Assembly (NCBI GenBank): GCA_964637465.1
Contig: CAZWTE010000001.1
Location: 1-57,328 of the forward strand
Origin: an uncultured Gammaproteobacteria bacterium
Lineage (GTDB): Bacteria > Patescibacteriota > Microgenomatia > Daviesbacterales > UBA10151
DNA: 57,328 nucleotides
Reading direction: 5' to 3'
Below are positions 6,147-49,757 of the stretch, one piece after another (the first letter of the stretch is position 1; each line of letters opens with the position of its first letter). The position numbers and the translations under genes are program-made. The notes beneath the pieces are model-generated. The model saw only the letters and a program-made list of their open reading frames with translations. It searched no databases and had not been told where the DNA came from.

Positions 6147-6308
6147 GAATATGGTTCATCAGTCAGGGAAGTCCCGGGCGGAGAAAAGGACGGTCTTTCT
6201 TACCAAATCGGTTGGGTACACCTGCTGGGCTGGTTTCTGGCACTGGTCACTATTAAAGCTTCATGGAAGAAGAACAAACAAACTTCTTTTATTATCATAC
6301 TTCTTTCT

Positions 6309-21397: not shown

Positions 21398-21398
21398 T

Positions 21399-22202
21399 AT
21401 GTTAAGTATAATTGTATTAACAAAAGATGAGGAAGAGAGAATTACAGCTTGCTTGGAGTCTATTAAATGGGCAGATGAAATTATTGTTTTAGATAGCGGT
21501 TCCACGGACAACACGCTTAAAATAGCAAAAAGCTATACGGACAAAATTTTTCAAGTTGATTTGCCGGATTTTTCCGCAATAAGAAATTTTGCTATGGAAA
21601 AGGCCGAGGGGGACTGGGTTCTTTTTGTGGACGCGGACGAGCGGGTACTCAAGCCGCTCAAAGAAGAAATTGAGATAATGATTAGTTTTGCGGATTTTTC
21701 CGCATATGCACTCTCCAGAAAGAATATAATTTTTGGGACTGAAGTCACGTACGGTCCGTTTCGGCCAGATTGGGTTATCCGGCTGTTGAGAAAAAGTGAT
21801 TTTGAGGGCTGGGTTGGCAAAGTGCATGAGTATCCAAAATTCAAAGGCAAATTAGGATACAGCAAAAATTCACTGCTTCATTTAACGCACCGGAATATTG
21901 ACCAGATTGTTCTAAAAAGTTTGGCATGGTCAAAAATTGATGCGAACCTAAGATTAAACGCCAATCACCCGAAAATGTCAGACTGGCGTTTTTTAAGGAT
22001 TTTCATTACTGAAGTTTTTAATCAGGGAGTTTTAAGGAAGGGGTTTTTTAACGGAACAATAGGGGTGATGGATTGTCTTCTGCAAGCTTTTAGTCTGTAT
22101 ATGACTTATGTAAGGTTGTGGGAACTTCAGCAATCTAAGCCCCGGGATAAAATTTATGAAGAGATTGATGAAAACTTGATAAAAAATAAATTCAATTATT
22201 AA
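21399..22202 (+). CDS. GT2 glycosyltransferase (KdtX/WaaE-like subclass), tandem with 20498
   Basis: 267 aa. Carries IIVLTKDEEERI...WADEIIVLDSGSTDNT, DADERV, and GFFNGTIGVMDCLLQAFSLYMTYVRLWE. Confidence 0.75.
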   Translation: MLSIIVLTKDEEERITACLESIKWADEIIVLDSGSTDNTLKIAKSYTDKIFQVDLPDFSAIRNFAMEKAEGDWVLFVDADERVLKPLKEEIEIMISFADFSAYALSRKNIIFGTEVTYGPFRPDWVIRLLRKSDFEGWVGKVHEYPKFKGKLGYSKNSLLHLTHRNIDQIVLKSLAWSKIDANLRLNANHPKMSDWRFLRIFITEVFNQGVLRKGFFNGTIGVMDCLLQAFSLYMTYVRLWELQQSKPRDKIYEEIDENLIKNKFNY

Positions 22203-23285
22203 TTGATTATGAAAGTCGCCATTTATTCCCCTTACCTTGATAGTTTTGGCGGTGGTGAGAGATATATGATGACAATTGCAGAAGCTTTTTCTTTAGGAAA
22301 CCCGGTAGATGTATTTTTGGATCAACATCTAACAAGCTTAGGAGGGGAAATTTTAAAAAATGAATTAGCAAAAAGGTTTGATTTAAACCTAAATCAGGTA
22401 AATTTTATAACCGCCCCATTTGGTAAGAGCTCATCTTCGGTCTCCAGAGTATTTTGTCTTCAAAATTATGACCTGCTTTTTTATCTGACTGACGGAAGTA
22501 TTTTTTATCCAACAGCCAAGAAAAATATTTTACATATCCAATCTCCCCTTATCGGCCAGCCTGCCAAAAGTCTTTGGGGCAAATTAAAGCTCAGAGGATG
22601 GAGTTTAATTATTTACAATTCAAAGTTTACTAAAGATCATTCCCAAAAGAATTGGCCTATTCAGTCTGAAATTATTTACCCGCCGGTTGATGTAATAAAG
22701 ATTAAACCTTTGAGAAAGAAAAAATATATATTATCAGTAGGCCGTTTTTTTGGTTACCTAAAGGACAAGAAACACAGAGTTTTAATAAAAGTTTTCAAAG
22801 AGCTTCTTCAAACAGCCGGTATTAATGATTGGAGTTTACATTTGGTGGGATCTGCCGGCAGCGGGGATACAGATTATTTACGGCAGTTGCAGGATGCGGC
22901 AGAAGGGGCTCCGGTAAAATTTTATCCGAATTTAGAATATGATAAACTGGTTGAGCTTTACGGGCAGTCGTGTATTTATTGGCATGCATCGGGGTTTGGT
23001 GAAGATGATCCGACAAAAATGGAACATTTCGGTATCTCTACTGTTGAAGCGATGGCCGGAGGCTGTGTGCCGGTGGTTATTGGTAAAGGAGGACAGAGAG
23101 AAATTGTAGAATCGGGAAAGTCAGGGTACTTGTGGGATACGCTGGAGGAACTCAAGGAATTTACTTTGCAGTTAACAAAAGATGTGAGCTTAAGGGAAAG
23201 AATAGCTGCAGAGGCTTTAGAGAAAGCAAAGGAATTTAGTAAAGAAAATTTTACAAATAAAATTCTTAACATAACTAAAATATGA
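22203..23285 (+). CDS. GT4 (Glycos_transf_1) glycosyltransferase
   Basis: 360-aa ORF. The TTG at 22203 is the ORF-track start, but ATG 22209 (MKVAIYSPY) is the more likely start. The C-terminal half carries the EX7E-type region EHFGISTVEAMAGGCVPVV..GGQREIV. Confidence 0.75.
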   Translation: MIMKVAIYSPYLDSFGGGERYMMTIAEAFSLGNPVDVFLDQHLTSLGGEILKNELAKRFDLNLNQVNFITAPFGKSSSSVSRVFCLQNYDLLFYLTDGSIFYPTAKKNILHIQSPLIGQPAKSLWGKLKLRGWSLIIYNSKFTKDHSQKNWPIQSEIIYPPVDVIKIKPLRKKKYILSVGRFFGYLKDKKHRVLIKVFKELLQTAGINDWSLHLVGSAGSGDTDYLRQLQDAAEGAPVKFYPNLEYDKLVELYGQSCIYWHASGFGEDDPTKMEHFGISTVEAMAGGCVPVVIGKGGQREIVESGKSGYLWDTLEELKEFTLQLTKDVSLRERIAAEALEKAKEFSKENFTNKILNITKI

Positions 23286-24421
23286 GAAAGACTTTTTGGA
23301 TCACTATCATTTTAGGAATAGTTGTGCGGATAGTATTATCCCTGGTTACATCCCATTCCGACATGCAGGCTTTTGATTTAGCCGGTAAGCTGGTAGCATC
23401 AGGAAACATCTTAAACCTTTATGATTTTAGCTCAAGCTCGGCAGTATTGAATTACCCCCCGGCAATATATATTTTCCATGGAATATTCAGCTTTTTGTTT
23501 AAACTTTCAGGTTTGTCTTCCGTCAGTCAATTGGATTTGTTGCTTTTAAAATTGCCGTATCTTATTTTTGATTTATTAATAGGATTTATTCTTTTGAAAT
23601 TGTTTGATTTTTCCAAAAAGGGGCAGTTGGCATTTATATTATGGATATTTAATCCGATTAATCTTTATGCTACCTATATGATGGGTCAATTTGATATTAT
23701 TCCTACCTTTTTTATTATTTTGGCAACCTTCTTTGTTGTTAAGAATAAATTAGAATGGGCGGCCTTGGCTTTAGGCGGAGGAATAGCCTTTAAATTATCC
23801 CCCGTATTTTTAGTAGTTCCGCTAATGATTTTTGGCAAAAATTACATGGATAGGTTTAAATTGCTTGTTTTGGCAATACTACCATATTTACTTTCAATCG
23901 CTCCGTACCTTTTTTCCCCCGGCTTTAGGACAACCGCTCTTTTTGCCAACCAAAGCTCGAAAAGCTTTTATGCCGGTATTCCCGTTTCCGGCGGGGAGTC
24001 AATCATTTTATTTCCGGCTTTTTTGTTGCTTTTCTACATTATTATATGGGGTATGTCCGGTAAGATTGATATTGGTAAATTATTCTTAATTCCATTATTG
24101 TTGTTTTTCATTTTTACCCATTATCATCCCCAATGGCTTATTTGGATAACTCCCCTATTAATTTTGGATTTAGTTAATACCGGATTTAAAAACATTCTGC
24201 CGGTTACCCTGATTTTTATTAGCTGGTTTGCTTCGCTTTTCTTTTTCGACCCCTCGCTTACTGTGGGGATATTCTCTCCTTTACAAACCTTTCCCGGTAT
24301 CTGGTCTATTTTAAATATTAACCCTGATTACAATTTATCCCGAAGTATTCTGCAAACAATCTTTACATCAGCTGCGCTTTATTTAATTTATAAAAATTCT
24401 CCCAGGAAAATTCATGCTTAA
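23282..24421 (+). CDS. Polytopic membrane protein, GT87/DUF2029-like mannosyltransferase-type GT-C
   Basis: 379 aa with about 10 TM helices. The first loop reads HSDMQAFDLAGKLVASGNILNLYDF...NYPPAIYIF. It shares an ATGA overlap with the GT4 gene. Confidence 0.55.
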   Translation: MRKTFWITIILGIVVRIVLSLVTSHSDMQAFDLAGKLVASGNILNLYDFSSSSAVLNYPPAIYIFHGIFSFLFKLSGLSSVSQLDLLLLKLPYLIFDLLIGFILLKLFDFSKKGQLAFILWIFNPINLYATYMMGQFDIIPTFFIILATFFVVKNKLEWAALALGGGIAFKLSPVFLVVPLMIFGKNYMDRFKLLVLAILPYLLSIAPYLFSPGFRTTALFANQSSKSFYAGIPVSGGESIILFPAFLLLFYIIIWGMSGKIDIGKLFLIPLLLFFIFTHYHPQWLIWITPLLILDLVNTGFKNILPVTLIFISWFASLFFFDPSLTVGIFSPLQTFPGIWSILNINPDYNLSRSILQTIFTSAALYLIYKNSPRKIHA

Positions 24422-25913
24422 TACTCAAAAAGTGCATGTAATTATTGTTATTTCCCTCTTTTTTATTTTTGGGTGGCTCTTATTTACATATAGAATTGTG
24501 GATGTACCTCCCGGCATAAATGGGGATGAAGCGGTGATAGGCTATAACGCTGCGCTGATTGCTAAAAATGGTAACGATTCAAACGGCAGGTTTTTACCGT
24601 TATTTACAGCAATGGAAGGATCGAACGACTGGAAACAGCCGGTGACTCTTTATTCAGCGGTCTTAGCATTTAAAATCTTTGGAGTCTCTTATTTTACTTT
24701 GAGAGCAGTTGGTGTCTTTTTTGCTTTGTTTTCCGGTGCGGTAATTTTTTTCTTAATCCGTGAACTTGTTGGATTGAAAGCTGCAATTTTTGGGGTACTT
24801 CTCTTTGTGACAACACCAATAATAATGATTCAGTCTCATTTGGCTCTGGAAAATATTGCCCCTGTTCCATTTATTGCTTTTTGGCTTTGGATGATTGTTA
24901 AATATAGTAAAAAAGCAAAAACCAGATATCTGGTTTTTGCGGGAATTAGCTTAGGTTTAAGTCTTTACTCTTATCTTGGATTAAGGTTAATTATGCCGCC
25001 CCTTGCAGCTGCAACTGTTGTACTTGTTTGCTGTCTTGGTAGGAGATTGTCTCAGGTAGTTATTCACAGAGTACTGATTTTTATTCTGGTAAGTATTCCC
25101 TTTCTGGTAATTTTCCTAATGATAAAAAATCAGTATCCGGGTTCTTTCCTTGGTCAATACAGGCCTTACCAAATAGCTTCATACCAACAACTTGCTTTAC
25201 CTTATATCTCTTCTTTTGACCCTTCCTTCTTATTTCTAAAAGGTGATGCCACACCATATCATTCCACAGGTAAACAGGGTATGTTTCTTCTGGCAAGCCT
25301 GCCTTTGTTTGTTTTGGGTATAGTGAAAATATTACAGGGAAAAAAACTAGCTCCGGTTTTTATATTAATTACTTTTTTCTTAATACCTGTTTTATATGGT
25401 TTTGCTTCAGATATTCATCGCGGAAGCAGGTTATTAAGTTTGATTCCGTCTTATATTGTTATTTGCTCTTTTGGAATAATGGTTTTGATTAAAATGAGAA
25501 ATAAATTATGTCGTTTTCTTCTTATATCACTCATGTTTTTTTTGATTATCATTAATTTTACCGATTTTTTGAACGATTATTGGTATGAGTATCCTAAAAG
25601 AGTTAAATCTGAATTTTCAAAGCCATATCAGGTAGTTTTCGAAGAGGCTTTCAATCTAAGTAAAACAAACAATCTTAATCTATTTATTCAAAGTGATTTT
25701 CGTATGCAGAACCCTTTGGCAGAGAAATTTTTTGAACAAGTATATTTTCCAGACGGATTAAAGCTTTGGAAAGATGAACATCTTCTTCCTCAAAACAGTG
25801 TTGTGATTGTGTCAGATTATATTCTTTCCCAAAAAAAGGATGTAAATTATAAAACAATGGGTGATGGTGACTTTGGCATCTTAATAAACCTGGATAAGAA
25901 TGGAAATAAATAA
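24414..25913 (+). CDS. PMT_2-like GT-C glycosyltransferase, array copy 1
   Basis: 499 aa. Carries PPGINGDEAVIGYNAALIAKNGNDSNGRFLPLF and, later, SDIHRGSRLLSLIP. It overlaps the upstream gene by 8 nt. Confidence 0.75.
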   Translation: MLNTQKVHVIIVISLFFIFGWLLFTYRIVDVPPGINGDEAVIGYNAALIAKNGNDSNGRFLPLFTAMEGSNDWKQPVTLYSAVLAFKIFGVSYFTLRAVGVFFALFSGAVIFFLIRELVGLKAAIFGVLLFVTTPIIMIQSHLALENIAPVPFIAFWLWMIVKYSKKAKTRYLVFAGISLGLSLYSYLGLRLIMPPLAAATVVLVCCLGRRLSQVVIHRVLIFILVSIPFLVIFLMIKNQYPGSFLGQYRPYQIASYQQLALPYISSFDPSFLFLKGDATPYHSTGKQGMFLLASLPLFVLGIVKILQGKKLAPVFILITFFLIPVLYGFASDIHRGSRLLSLIPSYIVICSFGIMVLIKMRNKLCRFLLISLMFFLIIINFTDFLNDYWYEYPKRVKSEFSKPYQVVFEEAFNLSKTNNLNLFIQSDFRMQNPLAEKFFEQVYFPDGLKLWKDEHLLPQNSVVIVSDYILSQKKDVNYKTMGDGDFGILINLDKNGNK

Positions 25914-27279
25914 CAAGTTATTGCTTGGTTTGATAATCCTTCTTGCCGTTTTCATCAGGCTGATACCGCTTGATTTTCCCCAATTTACTGCAGATGATGC
26001 AAGAATTGCTTACAGGGGATATGTTTTGGCAACAGAAGGTAAAGATGAACTGGGTAGAACCTTACCTCTTGTCTTTAATTCCCTAGACGATTATCAATTG
26101 CCTGTTGTCTCCTATGTTACAGCACTAGGAGTGTTGATATTCGGAAAAACGGACTCGGGAGTGCGAATACCCTTTATTTTAATCGGAACAGCTGTAATCC
26201 TTTTTATTTATGAATTATCAAGAATTTTTTTAAAAGATGAGCGTTTTAGTCTTTACGCTGCTGCCGTTGCAGGTTTGTCGCCCGGGTTAATATTCTTCTC
26301 CAAATTTCCCAATGAATTTATTATAACAACTTTTCTCATGTTGGTTTTGATTGTTAAGTTATTTGAAGAAAAGATCAGAATACTCCGGCTTTTGGTAATT
26401 ATTTTACTTCTGCTTTTAACATCCAAATTATCCTGGTTTATCTTAATCCCAGTTCTTTTGCTTACTATATATCTAAATAATCAAATGCAAAAAAAGACAA
26501 AAATAATCCTGCTTGCTTTTGGCTTAGTTTCTGTTTTTCTGGCAGTTGTTATTTTTTTAGCTATACCGCAGGGACAGAGAAGTTTAACAGAAAATAATTT
26601 TTCAATAGTAAATGATGTTACAGTAAAAAATAGTATAGAGAAAATAAGAGGTCAGACAATTCCCGGTTGGCCGGTTTTTCTTGACAGGATTTTATTCAAT
26701 AAAGCATACGTTGTAGTTGCCGGTATTTTTTATTGGCTTTCTCAGATTAATTTGAGTAAGTTGTTTGCGGAATTGGATCCGGGCAGCAGTTATGGTTATT
26801 TAAAAACGGGCGCATTTTCCAAAATAGCAATAATTCCTTTTGTAACAGGGTTAATATTTTTGATAAAAGAAAGCAGGAGGATTAAATTTTTAATTTTTTA
26901 TATCATACTTGTTACTTTCCCCTTAATATTTTTATACCCTTCAGAGCAGTCAGGACTAATTTTACCTGCACTGCCTTTTATTGTTTTAATTTCTGCTTTA
27001 AGTTGTCAGGTTTTCGGCCGGAAGATATTAACGGTCTTGCTGATTTTATTAACCTTAGAGTGGACAATTAATCTCTGGTTTATTCAAGCCAGTATTCTGA
27101 ATGCTAATGATAACAGACCAGGCTGGATCAGGGAGATAATAAAAGAAGCGGATGCTTATTCTGCCAATAATGTTGTATTTTCTGATGATATCGTCAATGA
27201 CTTGGCGCCTTTTATTGAGTGGTATACAAAGTTTAATCCAACAGATGGCTATGAAAATATTAAATTTCCGTACAGGTAA
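25900..27279 (+). CDS. PMT_2-like GT-C glycosyltransferase, array copy 2; truncated by an in-frame TAA and probably degenerating
   Basis: 459 aa. Carries FTADDARIAYRGYVLATEGKDELGRTLPLVF, with DD in place of the family DE. The PH..R motif position reads PSEQSGLILPALP, so the His is lost. The frame continues past TAA 27277-27279 into a conserved C-terminal module. Confidence 0.7.
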   Translation: MEINNKLLLGLIILLAVFIRLIPLDFPQFTADDARIAYRGYVLATEGKDELGRTLPLVFNSLDDYQLPVVSYVTALGVLIFGKTDSGVRIPFILIGTAVILFIYELSRIFLKDERFSLYAAAVAGLSPGLIFFSKFPNEFIITTFLMLVLIVKLFEEKIRILRLLVIILLLLLTSKLSWFILIPVLLLTIYLNNQMQKKTKIILLAFGLVSVFLAVVIFLAIPQGQRSLTENNFSIVNDVTVKNSIEKIRGQTIPGWPVFLDRILFNKAYVVVAGIFYWLSQINLSKLFAELDPGSSYGYLKTGAFSKIAIIPFVTGLIFLIKESRRIKFLIFYIILVTFPLIFLYPSEQSGLILPALPFIVLISALSCQVFGRKILTVLLILLTLEWTINLWFIQASILNANDNRPGWIREIIKEADAYSANNVVFSDDIVNDLAPFIEWYTKFNPTDGYENIKFPYR

Positions 27280-27489
27280 CGGCAAACAAATATTGCAAAT
27301 ATAACAATGGCCGGATCCGATGCTACTTTCTATGATTGCAATCAAGCTAAACCAGTCAGGATCTTTGCTTCTAAAAGGGATTTACATAGAATACAAAGTG
27401 TCATCAAAACCTTGCCCGAAAAGATCTACAAAGATTACCTAGGAAATGAGGTAGTTTATATCTTACAGCCAGTAATATGTATACGTTAA
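27280..27489 (+). pseudogene. Orphaned C-terminal module of array copy 2, downstream of the in-frame TAA
   Basis: Same frame as 25900..27279. KPVRIFASKRDL...KIYKDYLGNEVVYILQP aligns to KLLFVGRKGDFP...RLFSVDFLNGENAFDIVE at the end of 29160..30812. Its stop overlaps the next start by 13 nt, matching other junctions in the array. Confidence 0.6.
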
Positions 27490-29111
27490 TCAACAGAAAA
27501 AATCTAATTTTAGTCTTAATTATTTTAACTGGAGCTTTCTTTAGATTTTTTTATTTGAGCGGGTATCCCATTCAATTAAACCATGATGAAATAAGCCAAT
27601 TGTATGATCTGAAATCAATTATAGAAACAAAAAAGGATATCTACAGAAACTTTTTGCCGTTGGCTTTTCCTTCCACCGGGGATTACAAAGTGGGGCATTA
27701 TATATACATCAGCACTGTTCCTTATTTTTTTTCCGGGGACAGAGAAATTACAGTTAGGCTCCCTGCCGCATTTTTCAGTACCCTGACAATATTGGCAACG
27801 TTTTTATTTATTAAGGTGTTAACCAGGAATTGGTTGCTGGCCATCATCTCGGCTGCAGTCATATCGTTTACCCCTTCGGAGATATTCTATGGTCGGAAAA
27901 GCTTTGAAAACGTCATCGGTTCCAGTTTGGATATTTTCGGGTTATTTTTCCTTTTAAAATATTTAAAAGACAAGAAAAGTCAAATATGGGCAACCATAGG
28001 GGTGATGTTGTTGACTGCTGCTATGTATGTTTATACATCTCATACAATGTTGGTGCCTATGTTGCTTATTTTCCTTATTGCCCTGTTTAAGAAAAGATTA
28101 TTGACAAGGAAGAAAGAGTTTTTTGCAATTATCGCCATTTGGGTTATTAGTATGATTCCTTTAATTTTTTTAACAGCCCAAAATGCCGGTTTAAGGTTTA
28201 GGGCGGCTTCTGTTTTTGTTACTCAGGATGCCAATCTAGGAAGAGTAATTGGTTTAAACAACAGCCAACTTAAATCCTTAATAGATTTTATTCCGGCCAA
28301 ATTCCTTAATCAATTCGATCCGGCTTATCTTTTTTTAAGCGGTTTGGATCTGACTGAGAAAAATGCTTTTGGAATTGGCCCGCTTTTGTTTTGGCAGGCG
28401 CCTTTTCTCTTGGGAGGAATAATTTATTTAATCAGGAGAAAGGAACTTTATATAGCAAGAAATTTGTTGTTTGGGTTAGTGGTTTTGGCGATGATCCCCG
28501 GCGCAGTCACGTTTGAGGATTTTAGCCCCCACCGGTCTGTTTTGGCATTTACTATGTTGAGCATTGTTTCTGCTTTTGGTTTATATTGGTTGGTAAGAAA
28601 AATCTTAAACTTTAAAAGTTTCCTTTTCAAATCCAGTATTTTTGCAATTATTGCCTTAAGTTTACTGTTCAACCTGATTTACTTCTTAAGGATGTATACA
28701 ATAACTTATCCTTTTGAAAAATCAGAAAAATTACAATATCCTTTTAAACAAGTAAGTCAGTATATCTGGTCGCAGTATAATAATTTTGACCAAATTGTTT
28801 TTGATCCAAAATTTGGAGATGTATCTCCGTTTATTGGTGCAGGAGCCCATTATTATCTGGCTTATTACGGGAATTATCCTCCGGATAAATTCCAAAGAGA
28901 ATACCGCATTGGGGAAAAACCCAGAGAAATAATTTTTGATAAATTTTCTATCCGCGAAGTATATTGGCCTGCTGATAAGGATTTAAAAAATACTTTAGTG
29001 ATTGTCAGCCCCTGGAGCGTTCCGGAAAAAGACATAGCCGACAAGACAAAAATAATTAGAAGATTTAATTTTTACAACGGACAATTGGCATTCTATGCGA
29101 TCAAGCTGTAG
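27477..29111 (+). CDS. PMT_2-like GT-C glycosyltransferase, array copy 3
   Basis: 544 aa. Carries YPIQLNHDEISQLYDLKSIIETKKDIYRNFLPLAF and, later, DFSPHRSVLAFTM. Confidence 0.75.
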   Translation: MYTLINRKNLILVLIILTGAFFRFFYLSGYPIQLNHDEISQLYDLKSIIETKKDIYRNFLPLAFPSTGDYKVGHYIYISTVPYFFSGDREITVRLPAAFFSTLTILATFLFIKVLTRNWLLAIISAAVISFTPSEIFYGRKSFENVIGSSLDIFGLFFLLKYLKDKKSQIWATIGVMLLTAAMYVYTSHTMLVPMLLIFLIALFKKRLLTRKKEFFAIIAIWVISMIPLIFLTAQNAGLRFRAASVFVTQDANLGRVIGLNNSQLKSLIDFIPAKFLNQFDPAYLFLSGLDLTEKNAFGIGPLLFWQAPFLLGGIIYLIRRKELYIARNLLFGLVVLAMIPGAVTFEDFSPHRSVLAFTMLSIVSAFGLYWLVRKILNFKSFLFKSSIFAIIALSLLFNLIYFLRMYTITYPFEKSEKLQYPFKQVSQYIWSQYNNFDQIVFDPKFGDVSPFIGAGAHYYLAYYGNYPPDKFQREYRIGEKPREIIFDKFSIREVYWPADKDLKNTLVIVSPWSVPEKDIADKTKIIRRFNFYNGQLAFYAIKL

Positions 29112-29159
29112 TCGTAGCTTTTTGTGGTGTAAATTGCTACTATTAAGTTTAAAAGCTCC

Positions 29160-30812
29160 ATGAAGCGAAAAATATATTTAACCCTTATTTTAATAATTAT
29201 ATTGTCGTTTTTCCTGCGATTTTATAAAGTTACGGAAAATCCCCCTGCTTTAAATTGGGATGAAGTATCGATCGGTTATAATGCCTATTCAATTTTAAAA
29301 ACAGGCAAAGACGAGTGGAATCAGCCTTTTCCGATACATTTTAAAGCTTATGGGGAATATAAATTACCGGCGCAAATATATGCCAGTATCCCGGGTATAT
29401 ACCTTTTTGGACTCAATGAGTTAGGTATTAGGATAACCCCTGTTATTTACGGAACACTGACTGTGCTGGTGATGTTTTTCTTAGGTAAGCAGTTATTTCA
29501 GAGCAGTTTGGCCGGGTTGATAGCGTCTCTTTTGCTTGCTGTTTCACCCTGGCACATTCATCTTACCCGGGCTTCTTTTGAATCTTCTTTGGCCACATTT
29601 TTAGTCACAACGGGAATCTGGTTACTCATCAGGGGATTTCAGGATCAAAAATGGTTTGTAATATCAATGATTCCGTTTGCTCTGTCTGTGTTTACTTATA
29701 ATTCAGCCAGGATTTTTACTCCGGTGTTTTTAATAGCGGCAGTATTACTATACAGGAAAACTTTAATCAAATTTAGAAGAATAGCCGTTTTTTCCATAAT
29801 AGTTTTTACTGTTTTGGTCTTGCCGCTGGTGCCTTATTTATTTAGCGGCGAAAGAAGTGCCAGATATAAACTAGTCAGCGTGACTGATGATCCGGGACTC
29901 ATTCCCAGAATTAACGAAAACAGGGGACACTCGCGTTTACCCCGGCCTTTACCCAGGCTTGTGCATAATAAAATCACTTATGCAGCATTTTATTTTAGCA
30001 GAAATTATTTGACGCACTTTACTCCCCGGTTTTTATTTGTCTCAGGTGCTCCTCATAAACAGCATCATGTCCAAAATATGGGTGAATTATATTATTTCCA
30101 GGCACCGTTTCTATTGTTAGGTCTATATGCGCTTTTTAAGTTAAGAAACAAGTTTACCGGGTTGCTAATGGCTTGGGTATTGCTGGCATTTATTCCCGTT
30201 TCCGTCACCAATGATAGTATTCCCCATGCTTTAAGAACTCTAATTGCCGTCCCTTTTTATCAGCTGGTATCCGCTTTAGGCTTTGTATTTAGCTTAAGTT
30301 GGTTCAGTAAACTGTCTCCATTACAAAAAATTACCGGGGGTGTAGTATTGTTGTTTGTGGTTGCAGTAAGCATAGTTTACTACTTATATCAATATTACAT
30401 AATATATCCGGTCAAATATTCGCGGGACTGGCAATATGGTTACAAACAGGTGGTGGATTATATCGGTAAACACAGTAATGAATATGACCAGATTGTTTTT
30501 ACCAGACACTATGGCGAACCGCATATGTTTACCTTATTCTATCTAAGCTATGACCCGTCTCAGTATCAGAATAACCCAAATTTAGTCAGATTTGAGACAC
30601 ATGATTGGGCATGGGTTTTAAGATTTGATAAATATTATTTTCCTGATTTAGGTGATGAGGGAACCCAGTTTGCCGATGTTGTAAAGGCAAATCCTGATAA
30701 GAAATTATTGTTTGTTGGAAGAAAAGGCGATTTTCCTAAGGAGATTCCCAGATTGTTTTCCGTAGATTTTTTAAACGGCGAAAATGCTTTTGATATAGTT
30801 GAAACTAAATAA
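29160..30812 (+). CDS. PMT_2-like GT-C glycosyltransferase, array copy 4
   Basis: 550 aa. Carries PPALNWDEVSIGYNAYSILKTGKDEWNQPFPIHFKAYGEYKLPAQIY and, later, DSIPHALRTLIAVPFY. Confidence 0.8.
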   Translation: MKRKIYLTLILIIILSFFLRFYKVTENPPALNWDEVSIGYNAYSILKTGKDEWNQPFPIHFKAYGEYKLPAQIYASIPGIYLFGLNELGIRITPVIYGTLTVLVMFFLGKQLFQSSLAGLIASLLLAVSPWHIHLTRASFESSLATFLVTTGIWLLIRGFQDQKWFVISMIPFALSVFTYNSARIFTPVFLIAAVLLYRKTLIKFRRIAVFSIIVFTVLVLPLVPYLFSGERSARYKLVSVTDDPGLIPRINENRGHSRLPRPLPRLVHNKITYAAFYFSRNYLTHFTPRFLFVSGAPHKQHHVQNMGELYYFQAPFLLLGLYALFKLRNKFTGLLMAWVLLAFIPVSVTNDSIPHALRTLIAVPFYQLVSALGFVFSLSWFSKLSPLQKITGGVVLLFVVAVSIVYYLYQYYIIYPVKYSRDWQYGYKQVVDYIGKHSNEYDQIVFTRHYGEPHMFTLFYLSYDPSQYQNNPNLVRFETHDWAWVLRFDKYYFPDLGDEGTQFADVVKANPDKKLLFVGRKGDFPKEIPRLFSVDFLNGENAFDIVETK

Positions 30813-32222
30813 ATGTTTAAGACCAAATACCTATTGGGTTTAATCATTATTCTCTTTCTTTTTACGCGGCTCTATAAAATTAACGAGATTCCGTCTGCTG
30901 TTTATTGGGATGAAGCTTCGATTGGTTATAATGCCTATTCGGTTTCATTAAGCGGTCAGGATGAATGGGGGGAATTTTTACCAATCCATTTCAGGGCTTT
31001 TGGGGAATTTAAATTACCGGTTTACATTTATGCTGCCGTTGTTAGTGTTAAACTCTTCGGGCTAAACGAATTTGCAGTTAGAATTCCTGCAGTTTTATTC
31101 TCTTTAGGCGTAGTCATCATAACCTATTTTTTAGCCAAGAAGCTTTCAGGCAGTATAAACGCTGGTTTATTTAGCAGTTTCTTTGTTGTCATTTCTCCCT
31201 GGTTTTTTATTTTTTCAAGAACAGGATATGAAGTAACGGCCGGTTTGATGTTTTACCTATTGGCAGTATATCTTTTCCTGAAATACAGCAGCAATGCCTG
31301 GTATTTATTCTTTGCTGTTGCGAGTTTTATTTTTAGCGCTTACAGCTATAACAGTTTTAGGATAATTGCTCCGTTAACAATTTTGGTATTAATCTTCTAT
31401 AGCTTAAACAATTTAAGGAATGTTTTTAAGAAGGGAATGACTTTTTTAATAGCCTCTTTTTTTATTTTGATAGTCAGCACCATTCCCATTTATAGGTTAT
31501 ATACATATGATGCAGGAGCTTCACGCCTACAAGCTATTGGTGCGACCCCTGCAAATTTCATGACAAACTTTTTGTCGCATTTTGACCCGGATTTTTTAAT
31601 TTGGCAGGGAGATAAAAACTTCAGAAGCCAGCAAGCAGGTTTCGGGCAGCTTTATCTTCCGGAACTGGTACTATTGATACTGGGGTTAATATATATGATA
31701 GGCAGGAAACCAAAAAATGGCGCTCTTATAATAGTATTATCCTTACTTGGTCCTATTCCTGCTGCGCTTACCAGGGAATCTCCGCATGCTCTTCGGGCCC
31801 TTTCCATTGTGCCGTATTTGTCCATTATTTCGGCACTGGGCATAGATCAACTTTGCCGGTGGATAAAAAGATCAGGAATTGTTTATATAACAGTAATAAT
31901 AATCTTCCTTATTTTTTTTGCCAATTATTTCTTAAATTTTTTAAACGTTTACCCGTCGGAGTCAGCAAAAGATTGGCAGGATGAATACAAAAAGATCTTT
32001 ACCGGCCATAAGGATAGTTTAGACCAGTATAAGAAAGTTGTAATTTCTGATAAATATGCCCAGCCTTATATTTTTGCCCTTTTTTATTTAAAATATGATC
32101 CGCAAAAATTTAGACAAGAGGTAGTCCGGAGTAATGCCGGAGACTGGGGATTTTCGGCTGTTAAGGAGTTTGGAAAATTTGAATTTGTAAAGTCTCAGCA
32201 ATTATTTTCTTTTGAAAAATGA
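30813..32222 (+). CDS. PMT_2-like GT-C glycosyltransferase, array copy 5
   Basis: 469 aa. Carries SAVYWDEASIGYNAYSVSLSGQDEWGEFLPIHFRAFGEFKLPVYIY and, later, ESPHALRALSIVPY. Its start immediately follows the upstream stop (TAAATG). Confidence 0.8.
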   Translation: MFKTKYLLGLIIILFLFTRLYKINEIPSAVYWDEASIGYNAYSVSLSGQDEWGEFLPIHFRAFGEFKLPVYIYAAVVSVKLFGLNEFAVRIPAVLFSLGVVIITYFLAKKLSGSINAGLFSSFFVVISPWFFIFSRTGYEVTAGLMFYLLAVYLFLKYSSNAWYLFFAVASFIFSAYSYNSFRIIAPLTILVLIFYSLNNLRNVFKKGMTFLIASFFILIVSTIPIYRLYTYDAGASRLQAIGATPANFMTNFLSHFDPDFLIWQGDKNFRSQQAGFGQLYLPELVLLILGLIYMIGRKPKNGALIIVLSLLGPIPAALTRESPHALRALSIVPYLSIISALGIDQLCRWIKRSGIVYITVIIIFLIFFANYFLNFLNVYPSESAKDWQDEYKKIFTGHKDSLDQYKKVVISDKYAQPYIFALFYLKYDPQKFRQEVVRSNAGDWGFSAVKEFGKFEFVKSQQLFSFEK

Positions 32223-33805
32223 AAATAAAGATATTACTTATCTTAATTGTTATCCTGGCAGGACTATTAAGGTTATACAAATTAGATTCTGTTCCTCCTT
32301 CAATTTCCTGGGATGAGGCGGCAGTGGGATATAACGCCTGGACTATTGCTAATTGGGGAAGGGATGAATACGGGAAATTGCTGCCTGTATATTTTAAGTC
32401 ATTTGCTGATGATAAGCACCCGGTGCATATTTATACTACTGCTTTGTCAGTAAAATTTTTCGGGCTTTCCGAATTCAGCACCAGATTACCATCAGCTCTT
32501 TTTGGAATATTTAATGTGATACTAATATTTTTCCTGGCTAAATTAATGTTTTCATCAGAGATTTTAGGCCTTTTTGCCGCTTTTTCCTTAACCATTTCCC
32601 CCGCAAATATCCATTTTTCCAGATTTAACCATGAAGCAAATTTTGCGCTTTTTTTCCTCATGTTAGGACTGACGTTATTTTATTTGGCAGTGAAAAAGAA
32701 AAAATCATTGTTAGCTTTATCGGTTTTAAGTTTCGGGCTGGCTTTTTTAACCTACCATCCGTCAAAGGTAGTAGTTCCTGCAGTTGCAATCTTACTTTCG
32801 GTATTATATGGCAAGCAGTTATTAAGAAGCCGGTTTAATTTGGCCGGGGTGTTTACGGTATCAGCAGCTTTTTCCTTATTAATAATTCTAAATCCGCAGC
32901 TTTTAGGGATTGCAAGGGTAAATCAAACTTCACTAAGTAAAGACATTGTTAAAAAAACACAACTTTTCCAGATGACTAATAACGAATTGCTGGGCCGGTT
33001 AGAGTTAGTATTTACCCAATACAGCTGGCATTTTTCTCCCCAGTATTTATTTCTTTCCGGCGATAAAAATCCCCGCTTATCTGATCAAAAAACCGGTCAG
33101 TTTTATCCTCTTGAAGCGTTTTTTTTGCTGTTAGGTATTATCTTTTTGGGATACAGAAGGTCTAAAGAGGGTGTAGTGCTGTTGGCTTGGGCGTTTGTTG
33201 CTCCGCTCCCGTCTGCTTTAGTGGCAGAGGCGCCACATTCGGCCAGAGCCATGTTTATGATGGGGAGCTGGCACTTAATTGCAGCCCTGGGTTTTTACTG
33301 GTTATTTAATTTATTTAAAAAACCTGTATTTAAATTAGGTATTTTAATATTGACTTTGGGAGTACTTTTATTTTCTTTATCTGTATATACCGGCCATTAC
33401 TTCGTGGAATATGCCAGAAGAAATGCCATTGACTGGCAATACGGGATGAAGCAGATCGTTGAGTATGCAAAAGATCATCCTGAATATAGCCAGGTTTATA
33501 CAACTGCTGTCAGGTCTCAGCCGTACATTTTTTTCCTCTATTATTTAAAAACGCCTTTACCGCAATACTTAAATACAGTAATTTACAATAATTCCCAAGA
33601 TAAAAGTTATAATAGCGTATCGTATTTTGAAAGATATGAATTTGGAGGATGGAGTCCATTTGAAAGTGATGCCCGTAAAGGGGTACTATATGCTTTGAGT
33701 CCCAGTGAGTATGACGGATTAAAGTATCGCTCAAATTTTGAGGTAAAGAAAATAGTATATTACCCAAATGATGCAACCGCCTTCTTTTTGGTGACCTTAA
33801 AATGA
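32219..33805 (+). CDS. PMT_2-like GT-C glycosyltransferase, array copy 6
   Basis: 528 aa. Carries PPSISWDEAAVGYNAWTIANWGRDEYGKLLPVYFKSF and, later, EAPHSARAMFMMG. It has ATGA overlaps on both sides. Confidence 0.8.
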   Translation: MKIKILLILIVILAGLLRLYKLDSVPPSISWDEAAVGYNAWTIANWGRDEYGKLLPVYFKSFADDKHPVHIYTTALSVKFFGLSEFSTRLPSALFGIFNVILIFFLAKLMFSSEILGLFAAFSLTISPANIHFSRFNHEANFALFFLMLGLTLFYLAVKKKKSLLALSVLSFGLAFLTYHPSKVVVPAVAILLSVLYGKQLLRSRFNLAGVFTVSAAFSLLIILNPQLLGIARVNQTSLSKDIVKKTQLFQMTNNELLGRLELVFTQYSWHFSPQYLFLSGDKNPRLSDQKTGQFYPLEAFFLLLGIIFLGYRRSKEGVVLLAWAFVAPLPSALVAEAPHSARAMFMMGSWHLIAALGFYWLFNLFKKPVFKLGILILTLGVLLFSLSVYTGHYFVEYARRNAIDWQYGMKQIVEYAKDHPEYSQVYTTAVRSQPYIFFLYYLKTPLPQYLNTVIYNNSQDKSYNSVSYFERYEFGGWSPFESDARKGVLYALSPSEYDGLKYRSNFEVKKIVYYPNDATAFFLVTLK

Positions 33806-34575
33806 TGAAAAAAATATCTGTTGTTTTGGCCGTTTTTAACGAAGAAGGAAATTTAAGGAATTGTCTAAGTTCCGTAAAAGATTTTGCAGATGAGATAGTC
33901 ATTGTTGACGGCGGCTCCGCAGACAGAACCTTGGATATTGCCGAAGAGTTTAAAGCCAGAGTAATTTTAACCAACAATCCGCCTGTTTTCCATATTAATA
34001 AGAATAAGGCAATTGATGCGGCAAAAGGAGAGTGGATTTTACAACTAGATGCTGATGAGGTAGTAACTGAAGAATTGGCAGAAGAAATAAAAAAAGTAGT
34101 ATCTGTAAAATCTTTGGCTTACGGGTACTGGATACCCCGTAAGAATTTTTTCTTGGGAAAATTTTTAACAAAAGGCGGACAATATCCGGATTATACTCTC
34201 AGGCTTTACCGTAATGGCTTTGGCAGGTTTCCGGCAAAGGATGTCCATGAGCAGGCAGATGTTAAGGGTCAAGTCGGTTATTTAAAAAACGATCTTTTAC
34301 ATTTAAGAGATAAGAATTTTTCGGTGTATTCAGAAAGGTTTAACAGATATACAAATTTACTGGCATTGCAACTGAAAGAAGCCGGCCTTAAGATTGGGAT
34401 ATTTTCTTTTCTTAATTTTATTTTGGTTAAACCTTTGTTTTGGTTTATTAAAGCTTATCTCCGCCATCGGGGTTATGTGGATGGTTTTCCCGGTTTTGTT
34501 TTTGCCTTATTTTCCTCACTGAGATTTCCGGTGGCTTACATTAAATTAATGATAAATCCGATTTCAAAGATATGA
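33802..34575 (+). CDS. GT2 glycosyltransferase (KdtX/WaaE-like subclass)
   Basis: 257 aa. Carries VVLAVFNEEGNL...FADEIVIVDGGSADRT, DADEVV, and the C-terminal YVDGFPGFVFALFSSLRFPVAYIKL. Confidence 0.75.
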   Translation: MMKKISVVLAVFNEEGNLRNCLSSVKDFADEIVIVDGGSADRTLDIAEEFKARVILTNNPPVFHINKNKAIDAAKGEWILQLDADEVVTEELAEEIKKVVSVKSLAYGYWIPRKNFFLGKFLTKGGQYPDYTLRLYRNGFGRFPAKDVHEQADVKGQVGYLKNDLLHLRDKNFSVYSERFNRYTNLLALQLKEAGLKIGIFSFLNFILVKPLFWFIKAYLRHRGYVDGFPGFVFALFSSLRFPVAYIKLMINPISKI

Positions 34576-35648
34576 AAGTCGCAATTAATAATCTGCCTTT
34601 AAAGAGCGGTCATAAAACAAGAGGTATAGGATACTATACAGAACATTTAATCAGGGCTCTGCAGCAGGATAAAACAATTGAAGTCCGCGAATTTGTAAAT
34701 CCGTCGGAAGTTTTGGGGGTTGAGGTAGTCCATTATCCCTGGTTTGATTTATTTTTTCATACATTACCCATAATAAGAAGGTTTCCTACAGTAGTTACCA
34801 TTCATGATGTGATACCGTTGGTATTCCCTCAATATTACCCGGTAGGATTTCGGGGTAAAATTAATTTTACAATGCAAAAAATGGCTTTAAAAAGTTGTAA
34901 GTATATTATTACCGATTCTCATACATCAAAAGCGGATATTATTAGACATTTAAAGATTAAAGAAAGGAAAATTACGGTTATCCCGTTGGCAGCCGATCAA
35001 AAATTCCAAGTTTTGAAAAATGATACGAAGTTGCTTCATACACAAAGACAGTACCGTTTACCTGAGCAGTTTCTGCTTTATGTCGGGGATGCCAACAGGG
35101 TTAAAAATCTGCCTTTATTAATTGAGGGGTTTCGGCAGCTATTGAAACTCCCGGGTCTGCAGAATATAAAGCTGGTTTTAGCAGGCGGTATGTTTTTAAA
35201 AGACGTAGAAAATATCAACCATCCGGAATTGGAAAGCTTAAAGTTAGTTAGTCAATTAATCAAACAATACGGGCTTGAAGGCCATATAATTAGGCCCGGG
35301 CAAATTGAGGATGAGGATTTAGTTTCTTTCTATAACCTCGCAACAGTATATGTCCAGCCCTCGATTTACGAAGGTTTTGGGTTACCTGTTTTGCAGGCAT
35401 TTGCTTGCGGAACTCCGGTTGTTTCATCAAACCGGGGAAGTTTAAGTGAAGTAGGGGGACGTGCGGCAGTTTATTTTGATCCGGCCAATATCAGACATTT
35501 TATTTCAGTTGTCCAAGAGCTTTTGCAGAACAGATCACTCCGAAGTAAGTTATCTAAATTAGGTTTGGAACAAGCTGCCCGGTTTTCTTGGGACAAAGTA
35601 GCTGAAGAAACAAAATCAGTTTACCTCAAAGCAAGCAAAAATGAATAG
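34572..35648 (+). CDS. GT4 (Glycos_transf_1) glycosyltransferase
   Basis: 358 aa. Carries VQPSIYEGFGLPVLQAFACGTPVVSSNRGSLSEV, the classic GT4 EX7E region. Confidence 0.8.
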   Translation: MKVAINNLPLKSGHKTRGIGYYTEHLIRALQQDKTIEVREFVNPSEVLGVEVVHYPWFDLFFHTLPIIRRFPTVVTIHDVIPLVFPQYYPVGFRGKINFTMQKMALKSCKYIITDSHTSKADIIRHLKIKERKITVIPLAADQKFQVLKNDTKLLHTQRQYRLPEQFLLYVGDANRVKNLPLLIEGFRQLLKLPGLQNIKLVLAGGMFLKDVENINHPELESLKLVSQLIKQYGLEGHIIRPGQIEDEDLVSFYNLATVYVQPSIYEGFGLPVLQAFACGTPVVSSNRGSLSEVGGRAAVYFDPANIRHFISVVQELLQNRSLRSKLSKLGLEQAARFSWDKVAEETKSVYLKASKNE

Positions 35649-49735: not shown

Positions 49736-49742
49736 CTGGTAT

Positions 49743-49748
49743 ATTATA
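49743..49748 (-). promoter_or_regulatory. Candidate -10 (perfect TATAAT on minus strand), 7 nt from the ATG at 49735
   Basis: The reverse complement of attata is TATAAT. The intergenic region is only 22 nt long, which leaves no room for a 5' UTR or Shine-Dalgarno motif. Confidence 0.35.
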
Positions 49749-49752
49749 TAAG
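49747..49752 (+). promoter_or_regulatory. Candidate -10 (TATAAG), 5 nt from the ATG at 49758; the alternative is TGGTATATT at 49737-49745
   Basis: It overlaps the minus-strand -10 in the 22-nt divergent gap, and no Shine-Dalgarno motif is present. Confidence 0.25.
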
Positions 49753-49757
49753 CTTCT

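Follow-up and report, generated by a model that had tools for sequence, protein, structure and literature searches.

Six consecutive genes in a 57,328-nucleotide stretch of DNA (referred to as the window) encode ancient, divergent paralogues of a single GT-C glycosyltransferase subfamily, designated PMT_2 in Pfam. With a probability of about 0.6, these enzymes use polyprenyl-phosphate donors to attach sugars to a glycoconjugate of the cell surface on the extracytoplasmic side of the membrane, each copy having its own specificity. The window is interpreted as a surface-glycan island of about 57 kb from Candidatus Daviesbacteria (Microgenomates, candidate phyla radiation), in which the array represents a real yet fairly ordinary glycan-building locus.

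The array consists of copy 1 (499 aa, 24414..25913, PMT_2 E 4.5e-12), copy 2 (459 aa, 25900..27279, E 1.4e-7, truncated in the source genome), copy 3 (544 aa, 27477..29111, E 1.8e-7), copy 4 (550 aa, 29160..30812, matching PMT and PMT_2), which is the most conserved member, copy 5 (469 aa, 30813..32222, matching PMT_2 and PMT), which has a short C-terminal domain, and copy 6 (528 aa, 32219..33805, PMT_2 E 8e-17 and PMT). A seventh paralogue of this subfamily, the outlier (545 aa, PMT_2 E 3e-9), is located at 16387..18024. All seven genes are on the forward strand, at exactly the positions given in the original prediction. The proteins pass the gathering score of PMT_2 (PF13231) in all seven cases, with E-values from 1.8e-7 to 8e-17, and copies 4-6 also pass the threshold of the PMT model (PF02366), while copies 1-3 and the outlier fall below it. 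Their orthologues are named 'glycosyltransferase family 39 protein' by NCBI. In BLASTP, all pairwise comparisons among the seven were significant, the strongest between copies 4 and 5 (E 3e-75) and the weakest between copies 1 and 2 (6e-7), at 21-32% protein identity. The copies are true, though diverged, paralogues within a single family. As had been expected, copies 4-6 are the most alike, yet at 30-32% identity only, and the outlier (28% identity to copy 4, E 4e-46) is nearer to copy 4 than copies 1-3 are.

Some details of the original prediction had to be modified. The LP..F segment was identified in all six copies and the outlier. However, the first-loop motif x-D-E..GYNA(Y/W)S is strict in copies 4-6 and mostly kept in copy 1, but degraded in copies 2 and 3 and the outlier, and the PH..R motif is carried by five copies but is missing from copy 2. 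Junctions of 8, 14, 0, 4 and 4 nt and the 48-nt gap were found as described, but 13 nt is not the annotated junction between copies 2 and 3: this overlap with copy 3 belongs to a continuation of the copy 2 frame after its stop codon, ending at 27489.

For copy 4, the AlphaFold (AF2) model (pLDDT 86.9, pTM 0.88) revealed a GT-C fold with 11 transmembrane helices and an extracytoplasmic C-terminal alpha/beta domain. The best fold matches were all GT-C enzymes, namely STT3/AglB/PglB (E 5e-9 to 1e-7), ArnT (TM-score 0.57), Pmt4, ALG12 and Emb; with TM-scores of about 0.5 throughout, this search does not separate glycan-modifying (ArnT, Emb, ALG) from protein-modifying (STT3, PMT) members. With a profile built from the seven proteins, both ArnT and STT3 were matched (E 3e-6); in the profile alignment, K68-x-P of the array family aligns with Lys-Pro-Pro of ArnT. 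Conserved over six orthologue groups are P28, D34, E35, D51, P58, Y74, G84, R91, E141, Y180, G296, G308, G321, R359 and G374. In the model topology these residues are located in extracytoplasmic loops or at helix ends, and none in cytoplasmic loops; the conserved residues thus face outward. D34/E35, K68 and R359 correspond to the clan-wide catalytic and phosphate-binding motifs (PMC7801869), and the three motifs noted originally coincide with the catalytic Asp-Glu pair, with loop 1 and with the Arg binding the lipid-carrier phosphate. In copy 1, the equivalents of D-E, K68 and R359 are conserved. The C-terminal domain is variable across orthologue groups, with no residue conserved among them, but is kept inside each group (conservation 0.61); it has no structural match in any PDB entry.

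Copy 2 differs from the other members. An in-frame TAA at 27277..27279 (+) interrupts the gene at a position where orthologues have F, V or Y (PYK[FVY][HR]QT). Downstream of it, a remnant of 69 codons continues in the same frame (27280..27489, +), aligns with the C-termini of orthologues, and retains two conserved Cys residues and their terminal YKDxLG..VVYLL..ICI motif. Among the 17 orthologues compared, with lengths of 491-543 aa, none has a stop at this position; for one of them (L030) the N-terminus is cut by the contig start. The TAA might also reflect an error in sequencing or in the consensus of the metagenome assembly. Throughout the copy-2 orthologue group, K68 is replaced by Q and R359 by L or I. 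Since the phosphate-binding Lys and Arg are lost, the lineage may not be an active transferase, as judged from these two residues only. Purifying selection nevertheless persists in relatives (dN/dS 0.13), which implies that copy 2 has some function. Neither the nonsense codon nor the lineage-wide loss of phosphate-binding residues had been recorded in the original prediction.

The age of the array was deduced from related genomes. The whole block including its flanks, with the order GT2-GT2-GT4-G87-c1..c6-GT2-GT4-PIGV-Wzx-GT2, is shared with at least nine further genome assemblies of Daviesbacteria, with orthologue identities of 41-78% over the copies, and the core c4-c5-c6-GT2-GT4-PIGV(-Wzx-GT2) reaches out to Woesebacteria. 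In 17-43 related loci, each copy forms a separate clade of orthologues, to which a locus contributes about one member: 21 loci for copy 1 (41-62% identity), 27 for copy 3, 43 for copy 4 (50-78% identity), 37 for copy 5 (bootstrap 97) and 36 for copy 6. Between the loci L001 and L007, the copies have dN/dS values of 0.07-0.17 and the flanking genes of 0.07-0.14. Because synteny is maintained, each copy has its own orthologues and dN/dS resembles that of the flanks, the copies are old paralogues under purifying selection. The originally suggested repeated duplication over a long period, rather than a single recent event, was thus supported by the separate orthologue groups and by the presence of copies 4-6 as far as Woesebacteria. 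The suggested 'seven acceptor/linkage specificities' are compatible with, rather than proven by, the 1:1 orthology, the dN/dS values and the group-specific C-terminal domain, and 'seven' is an undercount for the family in the window. Further PMT_2 genes were identified by Pfam at 66-1331, 2146-3666, 3676-5328, 5328-7037 (interrupted) and 12807-14246 (-).

In total, at least 15 GT-C-type genes are present in the window, which also include YfhO-type, PIG-V-like and GT87-like members. Upstream of the array, a YfhO-family protein is encoded at 18030..20435 (-, E 3.6e-20), followed by two GT2 genes and one GT4 gene for predicted cytoplasmic nucleotide-sugar glycosyltransferases (20498..23285, +; Glycos_transf_2, Glycos_transf_1), which are syntenic in relatives. 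A polytopic membrane protein with about eight transmembrane helices (23282..24421, +), overlapping copy 1 by 8 nt, is probably another GT-C of the GT87-like type, with a Pfam match of E 9e-4, below threshold, and a conserved position in relatives. Downstream, a GT2 resembling GmaR/SunS (PDB GmaR E 9e-18), which is found in 48 of 50 related loci, and a GT4 (33802..35648, +) precede a PIG-V-like GT-C mannosyltransferase homologue (35641..36804, +; Mannosyl_trans2 E 5.8e-11), a Wzx-type (Polysacc_synt) flippase (36792..38042, +; PF01943, PF13440) and, adjoining the flippase, a further GT2 (38026..38838, +), termed GT2d. The latter resembles polyprenyl-phosphate sugar synthases (dolichol-P-mannose synthase 5mlz, E 1e-13; GtrB 5ekp, E 6e-12; PpgS/ArnC/PgfS-like NCBIfam matches below cut-offs) and is a candidate for making the lipid-linked donor. 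Like GT2d, the gene at 43218-43970 (-) matches dolichol-P-mannose synthase, GtrB and ArnC. An initiating phosphoglycosyltransferase was not identified in the window, nor was a clear candidate for a Ser/Thr-rich acceptor protein; both negative results weigh against the model proposed below.

On this basis, a model is proposed which follows the general paradigm of extracytoplasmic glycosylation with lipid-linked donors (PMC9574508). The DPM1/GtrB-like GT2s of the island would synthesize the donors at the cytoplasmic side of the membrane, and the neighbouring Wzx-type flippase would then flip them. For each enzyme, about 11 transmembrane helices are predicted, the N-terminus lying inside and the C-terminal alpha/beta domain outside, and the outward active site would comprise the first-loop Asp-Glu pair, the loop 1 Lys and the Arg of PHxxR before TM10. 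[quoted passage not shown] Copy 2, which in addition is truncated here, probably serves as a partner that is non-catalytic or has taken on another role. The proposed logic is that known from Gram-positive bacteria, with their three- and four-component systems of extracytoplasmic glycosylation, and from the Emb/Aft/Mpt enzymes of mycobacteria.

Instead of extending one glycan, the copies might be strict PMT-type protein O-glycosyltransferases, each initiating on Ser/Thr of its own set of surface or secreted proteins, such as pilins, S-layer proteins or adhesins, or using a sugar of its own. The match of copies 4-6 to the PMT model for protein O-mannosyltransferases favours a protein acceptor and counts against the glycan-extending reading. 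Additionally, a DE motif in loop 1, as found here, is the hallmark of PMTs, the top fold matches STT3/AglB/PglB as well as Pmt4 act on peptides, streptococcal GT-C enzymes modify Ser/Thr-rich protein regions, and DWQYG, conserved directly past the last transmembrane helix in copies 4 and 6, is superficially like the WWDYG of oligosaccharyltransferases. However, WWDYG itself and any match to the STT3 model are absent from the window proteins, copies 1-3 and the outlier fail the PMT model, MIR and PMT_4TMC domains are lacking, the genes nearby do not include a candidate substrate rich in Ser/Thr, and neighbours such as GT2, GT4, Wzx and sugar-nucleotide enzymes are typical of polysaccharide assembly. 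Protein O-glycosylation is regarded as possible but rather doubtful.

A role in hetero-oligomeric complexes like Pmt1-Pmt2 or EmbA-EmbB, with copy 2 as a non-catalytic structural or regulatory subunit and with tandem layout and stop/start overlaps serving stoichiometric co-production instead of independent specificities, is unlikely. The solved relatives among the fold matches are obligate dimers (the Pmt4 homodimer, Pmt1-Pmt2, EmbA-EmbB), selection is maintained on a copy-2 lineage devoid of K68 and R359, and the 14, 0 and 4 nt junctions are consistent with translational coupling without being evidence for it. However, in many related species the slot of copies 1-3 is occupied by other GT-C genes while copies 4-6 are retained, which argues against a fixed six-subunit complex, and for the truncated copy 2 a compensating change is not visible in the source genome. 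The slot variation, together with a mosaic of dS over the locus between two related genomes (0.00 to 2.0), which points to recombination of whole genes or segments between lineages, might also suggest a reservoir of interchangeable variants, arising by gene conversion, phase variation or copy-number change, or an expanded-repeat assembly artefact. This originally considered option is highly improbable and is largely refuted: at the low protein identity of the copies, DNA-level repeats linking them are limited to one 195-nt stretch at 70% identity, neither homogenisation among the copies nor invertible or repeat elements were found, the orthologue groups are 1:1 under purifying selection, and the gene order is identical in independent assemblies from different samples.

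Among the solved families, ArnT (undecaprenyl-phosphate-L-Ara4N:lipid A transferase, GT83; PDB 5ezm/5f15) is, with STT3, the only one detectable by sequence (E 3e-6, TM2-TM6), and its fold score is the best, tied with ALG12. In both ArnT and the array proteins, a polytopic membrane domain at the N-terminus precedes an extracytoplasmic domain at the C-terminus and loop 1 carries an acidic residue, and Lys85 of ArnT aligns with K68. However, the array proteins do not match the ArnT NCBIfam model, their C-terminal domain is without a counterpart in the PDB, and ArnT is single-copy in contrast to the tandem family. Its acceptor lipid A is not expected in these bacteria, since CPR bacteria are not known to have LPS. 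With PMT/POMT (GT39, including bacterial Pmt of actinobacteria), the array shares the PMT_2 and, for copies 4-6, PMT matches, the loop 1 DE motif and the family 39 name, but the MIR domain and the PMT_4TMC module are absent in the Pfam search, and solved PMTs align over only about 260 residues, at 16-19% identity.

The Gram-positive three- and four-component systems (CsdAB/CflA, GacI-L, GtrB/YfhO, Pgf) consist of the same parts as those gathered in the array locus, namely a GT-A enzyme resembling polyprenyl-P-sugar synthases, a Wzx-type flippase and GT-Cs with outward-facing catalytic residues; in the array locus, the functional link between these parts is suggested by synteny only. However, those systems employ a single GT-C, frequently a YfhO-type one, for each modification, whereas here six to seven PMT_2-type enzymes lie side by side among the at least 15 GT-C genes of the 57 kb. 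In mycobacteria (EmbA/B/C, AftA-D, PimE/Mpt) and in the ER lumen (ALG3/9/12/6/8/10), several GT-C paralogues act serially outside the cytoplasm on one glycan with polyprenyl-phosphate monosaccharide donors, and serial action of this kind is hypothesized for the array. These enzymes belong to other GT-C subfamilies, similarity to them was not found at the sequence level, and the Emb/Aft fold E-values are weaker (1e-3 to 5e-2). Nevertheless, both groups are among the fold matches of copy 4, and embCAB is a tandem array of paralogues, too.

Six consecutive genes on the forward strand, together with an outlying paralogue, had been proposed as one family, and ORF calling reproduced all seven. The array consists of copy 1 (24414-25913), copy 2 (25900-27279, ending at an in-frame TAA), copy 3 (27477-29111), copy 4 (29160-30812), copy 5 (30813-32222) and copy 6 (32219-33805), while the outlier is located at 16387-18024 on the same strand. 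All seven were assigned to the Pfam family PMT_2 (PF13231, GT-C clan) with scores of 31.9-62.3 bits, at a gathering threshold of 26.1 bits. Copies 4, 5 and 6 were additionally matched by the PMT model (PF02366) with 41.6, 28.6 and 34.9 bits (cut-off 22.7), and no match to this model was obtained for copies 1-3 and the outlier. An all-against-all BLASTP search gave significant similarity for every pair of the seven paralogues, so that the shared motifs cannot be dismissed as spurious. The highest similarity was identified among copies 4, 5 and 6 (30-32% identity, E 1e-69 to 3e-75), as had been anticipated, and the lowest between copies 1 and 2 (E 6e-7). Copy 4 is closer to the outlier (28% identity, E 4e-46) than to copies 1-3. 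Of the three motifs named in the original prediction, the D-E pair and the LP..F segment are present in all copies, the GYNA(Y/W)S motif is strictly kept only in copies 4-6, and the PH..R motif is found in five copies and is missing from copy 2.

For the product of copy 4, an AlphaFold (AF2) model with a pLDDT of 86.9 and a pTM of 0.88 was obtained, comprising about 11 TM helices and a C-terminal alpha/beta domain at about residues 426-550 (131 residues encoded at 30417-30809, pLDDT 90). In a fold search with this model, every one of the 25 PDB matches with E <= 1e-3 was a GT-C glycosyltransferase, among them STT3/AglB/PglB (E 5e-9 to 2e-5), Pmt4 (E 2e-6), ArnT and ALG12 (TM-score 0.57 for each), and ALG9 and Pmt1-Pmt2 (E about 6e-4); Emb, DPY19 and AftA/B/D were matched with weaker E values. 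On the sequence level, only ArnT and STT3 were detectable among the solved proteins (E 3e-6), over the region TM2-TM6. With the N-terminus placed inside, residues D34, E35, D51, K68, R137, E141, Y180, H356 and R359 (copy 4 numbering) are located outside the membrane in the model, as is the C-terminal domain.

The residues that are universally conserved in six orthologue groups are found only in extracytoplasmic loops or at helix ends, and the cytoplasmic loops and the C-terminal domain contain none of them. The pair D34-E35 is conserved to 92-100% in the groups of copies 1, 3, 4, 5, 6 and the outlier. K68 is K in 90-100% of the sequences in the groups of copies 1, 3, 4, 5 and 6 and R or K in the outlier group, and R359 is conserved to 95-100% in all six groups, the copy 2 group being without it. 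The motifs described for the GT-C clan as a whole are two features of the first extracytoplasmic loop (loop 1), namely an acidic pair (DD/DE/DxD) and a basic residue (K85 in ArnT), and an Arg before TM10, which contacts the phosphate of the lipid carrier (PMC7801869). The positions of D34/E35, K68 and R359 match these motifs, and its location before a TM helix suggests that R359 corresponds to R375 of PglB. The motif originally described as 'PHALR' is read as the predicted phosphate-contacting Arg before TM10.

The C-terminal domain has a conservation of 0.61 within orthologue groups and no residue common across the groups. Since a fold search with the isolated domain revealed no significant match in the PDB (best E 0.45), it gives no hint to the acceptor; the domain itself would be an obvious candidate for recognising the acceptor. 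Where the extracytoplasmic domain begins, immediately behind the last TM helix, a D-W-Q-Y-G sequence is present in copy 4 (residues 423-427, 30426-30440), which is kept in at least 90% of the copy 4 orthologues and occurs also in copy 6 (33431-33445). Its resemblance to the WWDYG sequon-binding motif of STT3/PglB/AglB is superficial and only partial, WWDYG itself being absent from the copies.

For copy 4, more than 100 clusters of orthologues were retrieved at 70-80% identity, and those which are named are labelled Candidatus Daviesbacteria or Microgenomates and annotated as 'glycosyltransferase family 39 protein'. The copy 4 subfamily comprises 3,045 clusters (50% identity) that match copy 4 at E <= 1e-30; a profile search with all seven paralogues brought up essentially the same orthologues without widening the diversity. 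When species-representative genomes were scanned, 79 loci were obtained, the ORFs of which were classified against the proteins of the window. The full block, in the order GT2-GT2-GT4-G87-c1-c2-c3-c4-c5-c6-GT2-GT4-PIGV-Wzx-GT2 (c1 to c6 for copies 1-6, G87 for a GT87-like gene, PIGV for a PIG-V-like gene), was identified in the loci L001/L005, L007, L009, L011, L012, L014, L022, L032 and L045. The core c4-c5-c6-GT2-GT4-PIGV(-Wzx-GT2) is also found in Woesebacteria and, partially, in Shapirobacteria. The slot of copies 1-3 is variable, and in many species it contains other GT-C genes, at times inverted. In the more distant Microgenomates (Levy-, Curtiss-, Gottesman-, Chisholm- and Blackburnbacteria), runs of copy-4-like genes are located upstream of the same GT2 gene. 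For the 50 loci of at least 18 kb, a median of 6 PMT_2-like genes per 21.6 kb (range 3-10) was counted, the longest run on one strand having a median of 4 genes (range 2-8). One locus deviates: L084, a Logan contig from SRR22388350, carries the closest relative of copy 4 (80% identity), followed, in place of copies 5 and 6, by small ORFs and by genes for a Peptidase_M78-like protein and a ResIII-like helicase. In this lineage, the locus has apparently been broken up or rearranged.

In a neighbour-joining tree of 268 proteins, each copy of the window falls into a group of its own with about one member per locus, covering 17-43 loci; the bootstrap value is 97 for the copy 5 group and lower at the outer limits of the other groups. 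This bears out the repeated, old duplication that had been proposed. Selection was analysed on L001 and L007, the two closest syntenic genomes, because the comparison of the window with its nearest syntenic relative, L001, is saturated at synonymous sites (pS 0.67-0.89). Between L001 and L007, the six copies have dN/dS values of 0.07-0.17, and those of the flanking genes are 0.07-0.14. The dS values of this pair form a mosaic, with 0.00 for the GT2 gene downstream of the flippase and a flanking GT4 gene (100% identical proteins), 0.11 for the flippase, 0.4-0.5 for copies 1 and 5, and 1.9-2.0 for copy 3, the GT87-like gene and a flanking GT2 gene. Such a pattern indicates recent recombination or transfer of segments of the glycan locus between lineages. 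The copies themselves are ancient duplications, each apparently retained for its own function, with no sign of homogenisation. The idea of a reservoir of variants is thereby essentially refuted. A collapsed or expanded repeat is excluded as well, because on the DNA level the only similarity between copies is one stretch of 195 nt with 70% identity, encoding loop 1 of copies 4 and 5. Reservoir and assembly artefact are together left with a negligible probability.

Copy 2 differs from the other members of the array. It is ended by the in-frame TAA at 27277-27279, and the same frame stays open for 69 more codons, to 27489. The predicted overlap of 13 nt with copy 3 exists, and is made by this continuation rather than by the annotated gene. 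The 17 compared copy 2 orthologues have 491-543 aa and contain F, V or Y at the position of the stop; in one further sequence, the N-terminus is cut by the contig start. The 69 codons after the stop still align with the orthologues, and two Cys conserved there are kept, as is the terminal motif. The stop is either a nonsense mutation of recent date or an error in the consensus. L084 is not a close comparator here, because its neighbourhood differs from that of the window. A second interrupted gene is the PTPS_related/PMT_2 paralogue at 5328-7037, split by an in-frame TAG at 6144-6146 into ORFs 5328-6146 and 6309-7037, the product of which is 32% identical to that of 3676-5328 over 537 aa. Stop-codon recoding was rejected for both, because TAA and TAG differ, both end ordinary genes elsewhere in the window, and the copy 2 orthologues carry sense codons. 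Two nonsense-interrupted GT-C genes in one contig of 57 kb suggest turnover of the family by birth and death, or consensus errors.

The copy 2 orthologues have Q at K68, L or I at R359, K at Y180 and F or L at G296, and the acidic pair is kept as D/E-E. Copy 2 is also the fastest-evolving copy, with 35-48% identity in most genome pairs and 70% in the closest one, L001/L007, where its dN/dS of 0.13 still reflects purifying selection. These substitutions suggest that copy 2 is a putative non-catalytic or re-purposed paralogue.

Seven family members had been counted originally, which proved too few, since the 57-kb window contains at least 15 genes of the GT-C type. Further PMT_2 genes were identified by Pfam at 66-1331, 2146-3666, 3676-5328 and, on the reverse strand, 12807-14246. 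In addition, a YfhO-type GT-C gene (18030-20435, reverse strand), the PIG-V-like GT-C gene (35641-36804) and a gene for a weakly GT87-like protein (23282-24421) are present. Several large polytopic proteins without a Pfam match look GT-C-like. Four paralogous ones of 516-625 aa are encoded at 49758-51626, 51623-53500, 53878-55638 and 55659-57209, the latter two on the reverse strand; they are 36-40% identical within pairs, have no Pfam match above threshold, and align with the PMT_2 core (TM2-TM5) in profile-profile comparison (probability 70%, E 4e-5). They probably form another, unrecognised GT-C-like family. Two further polytopic proteins (8517-11918 and 14396-16390), likewise without a Pfam match, share 31% identity over about 670 aa and the motif HDG(V/I)WH(L/I)AL; the larger one, from 8517-11918, starts with a secreted domain of about 480 aa, and in many of the related loci homologues adjoin the outlier PMT_2 gene. 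The remaining genes code for GT2 and GT4 enzymes, two Wzx-type flippases and sugar-nucleotide enzymes. No tRNA gene was found in the window, and a scan for promoters and terminators gave counts not above those of shuffled sequence and was uninformative on operon structure.

The array genes are members of Pfam PMT_2 and belong to the GT-C fold class. An assignment to narrower families was not obtained. The oligosaccharyltransferases (STT3/PglB/AglB) were ruled out, as the copies have no match to STT3 (PF02516) and no WWDYG. ArnT (GT83) was ruled out since the NCBIfam ArnT model is not matched by copies 4 and 6 and the similarity is confined to TM2-TM6. GT39 in the strict sense, the protein O-mannosyltransferases, is not demonstrable, with MIR and PMT_4TMC domains found in no copy at E <= 0.01 and the PMT model passed by copies 4-6 only.

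GT-C enzymes use lipid-phosphate-linked sugar donors and act outside the cytoplasm (PMC9574508; bioRxiv 10.1101/2024.05.05.592596). In the window, the GT2 gene at 38026-38838 resembles dolichol-phosphate mannose synthase (DPMS 5mlz, E 1e-13) and GtrB (E 6e-12), and a Wzx-type Polysacc_synt flippase gene (36792-38042) is located directly upstream of it. The GT2 gene at 43218-43970 (reverse strand) resembles dolichol-P-mannose synthase/GtrB/ArnC (E 1e-18), and those at 1328-2068 and 48998-49768 (reverse strand) are likewise synthase-like, below the family cut-offs. A lipid-linked primer could be built by the cytoplasmic GT2 and GT4 enzymes, and the donors would be supplied by the DPMS/GtrB/ArnC-like enzymes of the island. 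With a probability of roughly 0.6, we favour the reading that the paralogues act outside the membrane, where each one attaches a specific sugar or linkage to a surface glycoconjugate.

The main rival, which we regard as possible and on balance unlikely, is that the copies are PMT-like protein O-glycosyltransferases, each with different protein targets. The fold and domain data cannot separate it from glycan extension. Three related GT2 genes flank the array (20498-22202, 33802-34575), and the nearest solved relatives of the flanking GT2 products are GmaR, a flagellin O-GlcNAc transferase (E 9e-18), and the peptide S-glycosyltransferase SunS rather than polysaccharide synthases. This hints, if weakly, at peptides or proteins as possible acceptors at some step of the pathway. 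Among the proteins encoded in the window, none was identified as a Ser/Thr-rich candidate acceptor. A hetero-oligomer with copy 2 as a scaffold would agree with the substituted residues of copy 2 and its continued purifying selection, and is compatible with glycan extension or with PMT-like activity; we consider such an assembly rather improbable.

In the candidate phyla radiation (CPR), genomes measure about 1 Mb, and the bacteria presumably live attached to other cells; to our knowledge, almost nothing is known about their cell surfaces. In this Daviesbacteria genome, predicted extracytoplasmic glycosylation takes up at least 57 kb and at least 15 GT-C-type genes, and the six-gene core is kept gene for gene across many species. 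Both point to a complex and selectively important coat of surface glycan or glycoprotein. The locus provides a defined enzyme set for heterologous study, including a variable cassette (copies 1-3) and, with copy 2, a naturally occurring candidate pseudo-enzyme. It represents no new kind of system; its relevance for CPR surface biology is moderate, and it would not surprise a glycobiologist.

In the literature on Microgenomates, CPR, Patescibacteria or Daviesbacteria with PMT, GT-C or GT39, no description of such arrays was found, and for mannosyltransferases in CPR nothing was found beyond a brief remark on multiple dolichol-phosphate mannosyltransferase genes in Peribacteria. Already known are the public annotation of the genes as family 39 glycosyltransferases and the logic of GT-A/flippase/GT-C systems. 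Speculatively, and with considerable doubt, the locus might be a bacterial counterpart of ER-lumenal ALG or mycobacterial arabinogalactan assembly: a primer made by GT2 and GT4 enzymes would be flipped by Wzx and extended externally in an ordered way by at least six PMT_2-type GT-C enzymes fed by DPM1-like synthases, with a dead copy 2 as scaffold and the slot of copies 1-3 as a swappable cassette diversifying the surface glycan between species of these ultra-small episymbionts. GT-A, flippase and GT-C components are encoded together, in an arrangement kept in relatives. The multi-component GT-A/flippase/GT-C systems of Gram-positive bacteria follow the same logic, on which the presumed joint working of the components is modelled here, and many GT-C paralogues are found, as in this locus, in the mycobacterial Emb/Aft/Mpt enzymes and in the ER-lumenal ALG series.
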